Shown here: piece after piece, positions 45,948 to 53,675 of the stretch
Position numbering within the stretch: position 1 is the first letter of the stretch
Layout: each line of letters starts with the position of its first letter
Assembly: GCA_013265495.1 (NCBI GenBank)
Contig: MU057503.1
Span: forward strand, 310,001-374,000
Reading direction: 5' to 3'
Origin: Vicugna vicugna
Taxonomy: Eukaryota
DNA: 64,000 bases
Made by a program: the position numbers and the translations under genes
The notes under the pieces: generated by a model
Told to the model about the DNA's origin: nothing
Databases searched by the model: none
The model's input: only the letters and a program-made list of their open reading frames with translations

Positions 45948-46132
45948 CACAGATGAAGCTGCCACTGAGAATATTTTAAAAGCTGAACTGACCATGGCTG
46001 CTCTTTGTGGAAGACTGGGCCTCGTAACTTCAAGAGATGCCTTTATAACTGCGATATGCAAAGGTTCCCTGCCTCCCCATTATGCTCTCACTGTGCTGAA
46101 TACCACCACTGCGGCCACACTTTCCAGCAAAT
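45948..46132 (+). CDS. MON2: MON2 exon 14 (185 nt): [16 protein letters not shown]...AATLSSK
   Basis: ttttcag|CACAGAT...AAAT|gtaaga. Confidence 0.95.
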
Positions 46133-47816: not shown

Positions 47817-47897
47817 CATCTTGTATGGATTCTGGGATTAAAGCCTAGTAGTGGTGGTGCCTTGAAACCTGGGAGAGCTGTAGAAGGACCCAGTACA
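47817..47897 (+). CDS. MON2: MON2 exon 17 (81 nt): [27 protein letters not shown]
   Basis: ttacag|CATCTT...AGTACA|gtaagc; followed by a 78-nt intron. Confidence 0.95.
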
Positions 47898-47975
47898 GTA
47901 AGCTCTAGTCATTCTTACTCAATTAGCACTTCCCAGAATGTTTATATGTTACATTTAATTTTATTGTTTTCTTAG

Positions 47976-48049
47976 GTTCTAACAACAGCAGTGATGACAG
48001 ATTTACCAGTGATTTCCAATATACTTTCAAGATTGTTTGAAAGCTCACA
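47976..48049 (+). CDS. MON2: MON2 exon 18 (74 nt): VLTTAVMTDLPVISNILSRLFESS
   Basis: cttag|GTTCTA...TCACA|gtaaga; followed by an 89-nt intron. Confidence 0.95.
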
Positions 48050-52365: not shown

Positions 52366-52467
52366 GAACCATCTCTTTTTGCTGTTGCCAAATTGTTAGA
52401 AACTGGTCTAGTTAACATGCACCGAATAGAAATTCTGTGGAGACCTCTAACTGGCCATCTACTTGAG
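52366..52467 (+). CDS. MON2: MON2 exon 20 (102 nt): [34 protein letters not shown]
   Basis: ctctag|GAACCA...CTTGAG|gtaatc; ends phase 0. Confidence 0.95.
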
Positions 52468-53372
52468 GTAATCTCGTTTTCTTAATTATTATATTTACTT
52501 CTTGTTTAGAATAAAGACATACACATTAATGTTTCTGGATAACCGTAGAAAAAATCAGCATTAACTTTTTTTTCCCTGTACTTTTATCTGTATACTTTAT
52601 CAGGGACTAAGTTTTATAATAATTGCTTTGGTGAAGTAATAGGTTGCTTTTTTGGCTGAAAATGGGTGATATATCAATGAAGTCTCTGGAGTCTCCTTCA
52701 GCTGCTAGTTTGAGGCCGCTTTCTTTTATTATACAATCTTTTGATTCCCTAAGCTTCAGCTAGTTCTGAAACTTCAAGGCATTTAGGGCTGAGACTTTGT
52801 ACTAAACACTGCTCTTTTACAACCTTTCCTGTGATTATGAGGTAGGCTTTCTACAAAGGGAAAAACCTGTTTGGTTATAGATAGTGCCAGGGAACTGTGT
52901 CTGGATTTGTATTCTCTTGTATTCAGATTGGGGTGAATCAATAATTCACTGCTTCTTAATGGCAGCTGCCTCAGTCAGAGTACGTATTTATGTGTGGTTT
53001 AGGTTTAGGTCGCCATGATTATTTCACATTATTTTAGTAACCTAAAGAAGGTATTCTTAATTAAAAAAGGTGTTGTGCTTTCTTCTTTCCTTTTTTTCCT
53101 CTGTTTTATTGGGATTTCTCTTATGAGCTAGTAAGGAATATATGCAGATTCTTCATTATGGACATTCTCATCAAATGGCAAAAATATGTTCTTAAAATTT
53201 TAGCTCAGTATTTGATTATGCTGGTAGACCTAAATAGGAACCTTAGTATCTGCTTGTTTTGTTTATTCTGATGACATCATTTACTTTTATGAAATCCTTT
53301 CTTCTCCGTGAGTTGTTCAGTTTCATCTTTTATCTTCTGTCTCTCTATTGCTTCCTCTTGCCTCTCATTCAG

Positions 53373-53375
53373 AAG
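53373..53375 (+). CDS. MON2: Candidate 3-nt alternative microexon AAG (Lys) of MON2, giving LLE-K-VCQ
   Basis: 50-nt AG-free pyrimidine tract with two TGC motifs, then cag|AAG|gtaagc, inside a phase-0 intron. Confidence 0.8.
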
Positions 53376-53564
53376 GTAAGCTTACTTACATTTTGGATAT
53401 AATATTTTTTCAACCCTTATTGATGAACTTTTGATATAATTTTTTAAATGCGAAAGAATAGAAAATGTGATGGTTTAATTTTTCTTTTCTCAAATTGATG
53501 TGTGATGCCTAGCTTAAGTATACAAGTTAAATATTTAACTTTTGTTTAATGTGTGTACCTTCAG

Positions 53565-53675
53565 GTGTGCCAGCATCCAAACTCTCGAATGAGAGAATGG
53601 GGAGCAGAAGCTTTAACCTCACTTATTAAAGCAGGATTAACATTTAACCATGATCCTCCACTTTCACAAAATCAG
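53565..53675 (+). CDS. MON2: MON2 exon 21 (111 nt): [18 protein letters not shown]...PLSQNQ
   Basis: cttcag|GTGTGC...AATCAG|gtaaaa. Confidence 0.95.

Follow-up and report, generated by a model that had tools for sequence, protein, structure and literature searches.

A one-codon exon in a MON2 intron of Vicugna vicugna is very probably the orthologue of the known SRRM4-responsive 3-nt MON2 microexon

The question raised by this locus is whether the three nucleotides AAG, lying between two MON2 exons of Vicugna vicugna, are a genuine exon of one Lys codon, and if so whether such an exon is new and under the control of the neural splicing factors SRRM3 and SRRM4. The whole stretch of DNA analysed, hereafter the window, comprises 64,000 nt of contig MU057503.1. 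Using human MON2 as the tblastn query, 24 exon pieces were matched in the window, covering human residues 37 to approximately 1345. Over 894 amino acids, the MON2 encoded in the window showed about 96% identity to MON2 of many eutherian orders, 95.2% to human, 91.3% to rat and 89-90% to bird and turtle. The features of the intron concerned and of its two neighbouring exons are as follows.

52366..52467, + strand: upstream MON2 exon (exon 20 in the numbering of the original prediction), translated as ...RPLTGHLLE (34 residues), located by tblastn at human MON2 residues 789-822 and by junction search
53048..53050, + strand: rival AG|AAG|GT site of the same intron
53321..53370, + strand: AG-exclusion zone and polypyrimidine tract, 50 AG-free nt, 86% pyrimidine
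53325..53332, + strand: candidate distal branch points from a yUnAy scan, TTCAT (A at 53325, -48) and TTTAT (A at 53332, -41)
53340..53346, + strand: UCUCUCU repeat, candidate upstream half of the bipartite microexon enhancer (SRSF11/PTBP1/U2AF2-type site; motif definition from 10.1101/2024.09.17.613571)
53349..53351, + strand: UGC motif, candidate SRRM3/4 site, -24 from the first exon base
53359..53361, + strand: UGC motif, candidate SRRM3/4 site, -14 from the first exon base
53371..53372, + strand: microexon acceptor AG (cag = 53370-53372)
53373..53375, + strand: 3-nt microexon AAG (Lys; K823 of the human 1718-aa isoform), with K at the same junction in database proteins
53376..53381, + strand: microexon donor gtaagc, AAG|gtaagc agreeing with the consensus at 7/9 positions, predicted U1 duplex -9.5 kcal/mol
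53565..53675, + strand: downstream MON2 exon (exon 21 in the same numbering), translated as VCQHPN... (37 residues), located by tblastn and junction search

The upstream exon ends in the donor GAG|gtaatc, which sets the start of the intron at 52468, and ttcag immediately precedes the downstream exon start at 53565. The nearest AG 5′ of the microexon acceptor lies at 53319-53320, the next AG being the acceptor itself. AAG divides the intron into pieces of 905 nt (52468-53372) and 189 nt (53376-53564), both of phase 0. As both neighbouring exons meet AAG at codon boundaries, its inclusion adds one Lys (GHLLEKVCQHP) without a frameshift. The original prediction had described the AG-free 50 nt, the pyrimidine- and UC-rich tract, the positions of the two TGC triplets and the unit cag|AAG|gtaagc, together with the two spacings, the phase and the in-frame Lys; read against the sequence and the exon translations, this description is exact base for base.

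The bare pattern YAGNNNGTRAG was counted 12 times in the window, where 6.36 occurrences would be expected, and a count of 12 was also reached by 3 of 100 shuffles; the motif by itself is thus not remarkable. As a yardstick for the flanking signals, 23 constitutive MON2 junctions were located and scored within the window. Pyrimidine content over 40 nt was 0.85 at the 53373 site against a constitutive median of 0.625, with all 23 junctions lower, and the AG-free run 5′ of the acceptor was 50 nt against a median of 36 nt. The donor score of 7/9 compares with a constitutive median of 6, and the predicted U1 duplex, the fourth strongest of 24 when ranked together with the 23 constitutive donors, with a median of -7.2 kcal/mol. 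AG-NNN-GT sites numbered 425 in the window (238 on the plus strand and 187 on the minus strand). A composite filter (pyrimidine ≥80% over 40 nt, AG-free run ≥40 nt, donor ≥7/9) was passed by the 53373 site alone among them, a uniqueness that is descriptive and no formal test, since the thresholds were picked after the site had been seen. With the same filter, none of 200 first-order Markov simulations gave a passing site.

SRRM3/4 microexons are described as carrying a bipartite UCUCUC[N1-50]UGC enhancer that binds SRRM3/4, SRSF11, U2AF2 or PTBP1, together with a pyrimidine tract and a branch point set back from the AG (10.1101/2024.09.17.613571). The layout at the 53373 site, including the UC repeat and UGC motifs pointed out in the original prediction, matches this published bipartite enhancer with a distant branch point, the branch point being a predicted one. 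Every sequence-level property of the class that was tested was found at the site, again with the branch point as a prediction: a frame-keeping cassette within the 3-27 nt range with AG/GT flanks, UGC between the candidate branch points and the AG, a UC-rich tract with its predicted branch point far from the AG, and a strong 5′ splice site. The site thus has in common with SRRM3/4 neural microexons the order of UC-rich tract, UGC and AG, as well as a host gene of vesicle trafficking, and with its single codon the MON2 AAG stands at the size minimum of the class.

A mechanism can be proposed on this basis. A 3-nt exon would not be definable across itself by the usual exon-bridging contacts. In most cells, AAG would be too short for exon definition and would be skipped, giving GHLLE-VCQHP. 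In cells expressing SRRM4 or SRRM3 (neurons, perhaps endocrine cells), the factor would engage the UGC motifs at -24 and -14, which are placed between the presumed distant branch point (approximately -41 to -48) and the AG, behind the long UC-rich tract. SRRM3/4 would then aid early spliceosome assembly on the acceptor, the strong donor would bring in U1, and AAG would be spliced in to add the one extra Lys corresponding to human K823.

MON2 proteins of other species were searched for a residue at this junction. The first search, with the downstream exon as query (50-aa window reference), returned among the best 120 of 608 matches 115 MON2 proteins reading ...GHLLE-VCQHPN, four short read-through products, and P0008, the 152-aa spliced product of a 948-nt JGI contig, which reads ...GHLLEKVCQHPN... 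and whose Lys is known from its protein letters. The second search used P0008 as its seed in order to favour Lys-bearing proteins in the scoring; with its best 120 of 986 matches added, the long MON2 proteins collected numbered 182. Among these 182 amniote proteins in the matches listed, 48 carried Lys, 132 lacked it and two carried Q; most Lys-bearing records are computed gene models and hence not independent experiments. The 48 carriers include primates (human, chimpanzee, bonobo, gorilla, gibbon, macaques, baboon, other monkeys and tarsier), carnivores (seals, sea lion, the mustelids ferret, stoat and otter, and cats), two bats, black rat, ground squirrel, jerboa, aardvark, kakapo and painted turtle, and one comes from a Logan-only source. 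The human proteins P0147 (1718 aa) and P0120 (1717 aa) differ solely by K823, in the context PLTGHLLE^VCQHPNSR.

The third search started from a sturgeon MON2 segment and contributed 119 further proteins, mostly of fishes, from the best 120 of 909 matches. In this set, among the matches listed, 12 proteins carried Lys, 106 lacked it and one carried V. The carriers include paddlefish, spotted gar, herring, milkfish, piranha, fathead minnow, Xiphophorus, two Cyprinodon species and Gambusia (poeciliids among them), as well as one Logan-only record. Annotation of the Lys isoform thus spans ray-finned fishes to mammals, a conservation seen at the protein level, and the protein-level evidence for the K823 exon is extended to ray-finned fishes. 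Lys was found at the junction in 0 of 18 distant non-vertebrate MON2 relatives (metagenome contigs, 45-71% identity). As these have no residue there, the Lys-less junction is the older state. In loci L011-L018, which are genomic-looking metagenome contigs and presumably invertebrate, the equivalents of exons 20 and 21 lie in one exon; residues 49-121 form one unbroken match, which means that these contigs lack the host intron. Judged from these sequences, the intron and its microexon look like a vertebrate feature.

Three database proteins carry another residue at the junction: P0165 (Macaca fascicularis) and P0175 (Loxodonta africana) read LLEQVCQ, and P0267 (Echeneis naucrates) reads LLEVVCQ. 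In the window, Q corresponds to the codon from the cag of the exon-21 acceptor and V to the codon from the gta of the exon-20 donor. The Q and V look like annotation artefacts, in which a pipeline shifted the splice site and missed the 3-nt exon, and the comparison serves to flag database proteins where a false Q or V stands in place of Lys.

Splicing data for a 3-nt MON2 exon are available for mouse and human. The first row of Table S2 in Quesnel-Vallieres et al. 2015 (PMC4387716) is mouse Mon2 event MmuEX0029412 (chr10:122460142-122460144, length 3), with wild-type PSI of 84.1/85.5 in cortex and 79.9/76.1 in hippocampus and nSR100/SRRM4-knockout PSI of 69.6/75.7 and 57.6/63.1, respectively (mean dPSI -14.9, t-test 0.0115). 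This effect is modest compared with those on Vav2 (-42) and Col11a1 (-53) in the same table, of which the next row, Dctn2 event MmuEX0013953, is likewise a 3-nt nSR100-dependent cassette, in an unrelated gene. Supplementary file 7 of Head et al. 2021 (PMC7935315) contains human MON2 event HsaEX0039778 (chr12:62544766-62544768, length 3), whose PSI in HEK293 rises from 0 with GFP to 95.86 with SRRM4. Since no one-residue difference other than K823 separates the human isoforms compared, HsaEX0039778 and MmuEX0029412 were taken as the K823 exon. Both events are, like AAG here, 3 nt long and frame-keeping, and both would place Lys at GHLLE|VCQHP. The flanking exon peptides of human MON2 are identical to those of this species, so that the Lys codon of the window lies between the same two exons, ...GHLLE and VCQHPN.... 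The published SRRM4 response belongs to the human and mouse events, whereas the copy of this species is known from DNA.

Taken together, these observations make it very probable that the AAG at 53373-53375 is orthologous to the known 3-nt MON2 microexon (HsaEX0039778/MmuEX0029412) and driven by SRRM3/4. Use of the exon in Vicugna vicugna is deduced from conservation, and we infer that the 3-nt exon would be spliced in this species in the same way. The microexon is real, ancient and already known, being annotated from fish to human, and its dependence on SRRM4 is already published for mouse and human.

This outcome bears differently on the several claims of the original prediction. Its suggestion that MON2 isoforms of other mammals may differ by one Lys here was correct (48/182 amniote and 12/119 fish-dominated proteins listed, and human K823), and the SRRM4 control it proposed is borne out in the mouse and human orthologues. 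The exon cannot be called hidden or new, as it is present in the NCBI gene models of dozens of species. That annotation pipelines would miss it held for the three proteins with a spurious Q or V and failed for those dozens of annotated species. As to the suggested lookup in VastDB or MicroExonator output, 3-nt MON2 VastDB events stand in the published tables, and the name 'Mon2' does not occur in the supplements published with MicroExonator (PMC7821500), which may give exons by coordinate only. 'Mon2' is also absent from the supplements of a zebrafish conserved-microexon paper (PMC12626424). A literature search found, among the papers listed, no main text joining the event identifiers or '3-nt microexon' with MON2, and none joining MON2 with SRRM3/4 or microexon beyond work on a different, 18-nt exon of the gene. 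The discovery value is consequently small for an exon annotated in many vertebrates and present in SRRM4 target tables; of more general interest is that a one-codon exon could be recognised from sequence alone, given the full set of microexon signals.

An alternative to the SRRM3/4-driven orthologue accepts that the microexon is used here and holds that its inclusion is broad, or mainly due to factors other than SRRM4 (e.g. SRRM3, or splice-site strength), without a neuron/endocrine switch. The mouse nSR100 knockout leaves PSI at 58-76 with a loss of only about 15 points, which indicates that SRRM4 is not the sole activator. We take SRRM3 to be the obvious candidate for an additional activator of the MON2 microexon. 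The donor and pyrimidine tract of the microexon are among the strongest in the window, and according to a preprint UGC is not strictly needed in SRRM4-dependent microexons, both of which would fit broad use. However, the rise of the human exon in HEK293 from a PSI of 0 without SRRM4 to 95.9 with it argues against constitutive non-neural use, and the 53373 site does have two UGC motifs and a UCUC tract; broad or SRRM4-independent inclusion is therefore considered improbable.

The motif could also have been kept by chance or descent and be no longer spliced in this lineage, with the Lys-less isoform alone being made, a view to which the commonness of the bare YAGNNNGTRAG pattern in the window lends something. 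All signals are nevertheless intact and stronger than in most constitutive MON2 exons, the composite signal is unique in the window, and this mammal is bracketed by eutherians, a bird, a turtle and ray-finned fishes that have the Lys isoform, so that an unspliced relic is very improbable. Finally, the host intron contains six AG-NNN-GT sites, two of which are AAG, and the Lys isoform might derive from the one at 53048-53050 instead of from 53373-53375; the protein product would be identical, and protein databases thus cannot separate the two. Yet 53048-53050 has only 8 AG-free nt, a pyrimidine content of 0.60, no UGC near its acceptor against two at 53373, a donor of 5/9 and a U1 duplex of -5.7 kcal/mol. 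With such weak signals the site is probably not used, and the chance that it is the source of the Lys verges on the negligible. The SRRM3/4-driven orthologue at 53373-53375 is accordingly the reading retained below.

The same intron contains a second microexon-like unit, tatgag|CTA|gtaagg, at 53128-53130, located 245 nt 5′ of the AAG unit. Its acceptor tract spans approximately 53075-53127 (0.825 pyrimidine over 40 nt, 56 AG-free nt) and its donor gtaagg is at 53131-53136. The unit passes a relaxed filter only, would insert Leu, and could be a decoy or chance; no Leu was seen at the GHLLE|VCQHP junction among the stored MON2 proteins (182 + 119, best-listed matches). An origin of the microexon unit by tandem duplication was considered and rejected: when 53050-53145 was aligned locally with 53295-53390, the score was 19 and the mean for shuffled sequences 19.2, so the CTA unit does not duplicate the AAG unit. 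A retrocopy with the inclusion junction was likewise rejected, as a search of the species' own genome (2.03 Gb, 12,405 contigs) matched only the four exons of this locus, and it gave no second copy of the region.

For structural context, P0008 was modelled with AlphaFold2 from a 10-row alignment, giving a mean pLDDT of 82.5 for the best model and 49-59 for the other four. In the best model, helices span residues 67-85 and 91-110, and Lys is residue 84, in the last turn of the first helix. This weak model would place the Lys insertion at the end of a HEAT-like helix before the invariant CQHP(N) loop and not in the helix core. A literature search found no study on the function of the MON2 Lys. 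As a tentative suggestion, which we hold to be somewhat unlikely, Lys may be a functional switch kept since the ancestor of ray-finned fishes and tetrapods, extending the HEAT-like helix end by the CQHP loop and possibly retuning a binding surface of neuronal MON2 for an endosome-to-Golgi partner.

MON2 has a further SRRM4-responsive microexon, the 18-nt exon HsaEX0039780 (IQLFAP, human aa 1394-1399), which rises in HEK293 from a PSI of 57.5 to 98.0 with SRRM4 (PMC7935315 supplementary file 7). It is a distinct exon and lies beyond the window, where the last matched MON2 exon ends at approximately human residue 1345. A preprint (PMC13174390) terms a Mon2 microexon 'well-characterized' and SRRM4-dependent. 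Its Mon2 primers encode CKKKFPPV (aa 28-35) and CVGPENMQ (human aa 1348-1355), neither of which is in exon 20; they most likely address the 18-nt IQLFAP exon, and the preprint was set aside as evidence for the 3-nt exon. In its supplementary Table S2, the Mon2 primer labelled 'first exon' is CVGPENMQ, which lies about 40 residues N-terminal of IQLFAP, and the one labelled 'upstream exon' is CKKKFPPV; the labels of the two primers appear to be swapped.

Two further observations concern other parts of MON2 in the window. The exon piece of approximately 233 nt at 47817-48049 corresponds to human MON2 residues 705-758 at 66% identity with gaps; compared with the human gene, it may include additional sequence or a small intron that went unrecognised, which affects the exon numbering. 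Apart from K823 and the 18-nt IQLFAP exon, the human isoforms (P0057 against P0147) show a further difference of 23 residues at approximately aa 611-634, which falls within the window exon at approximately 45948-46132.
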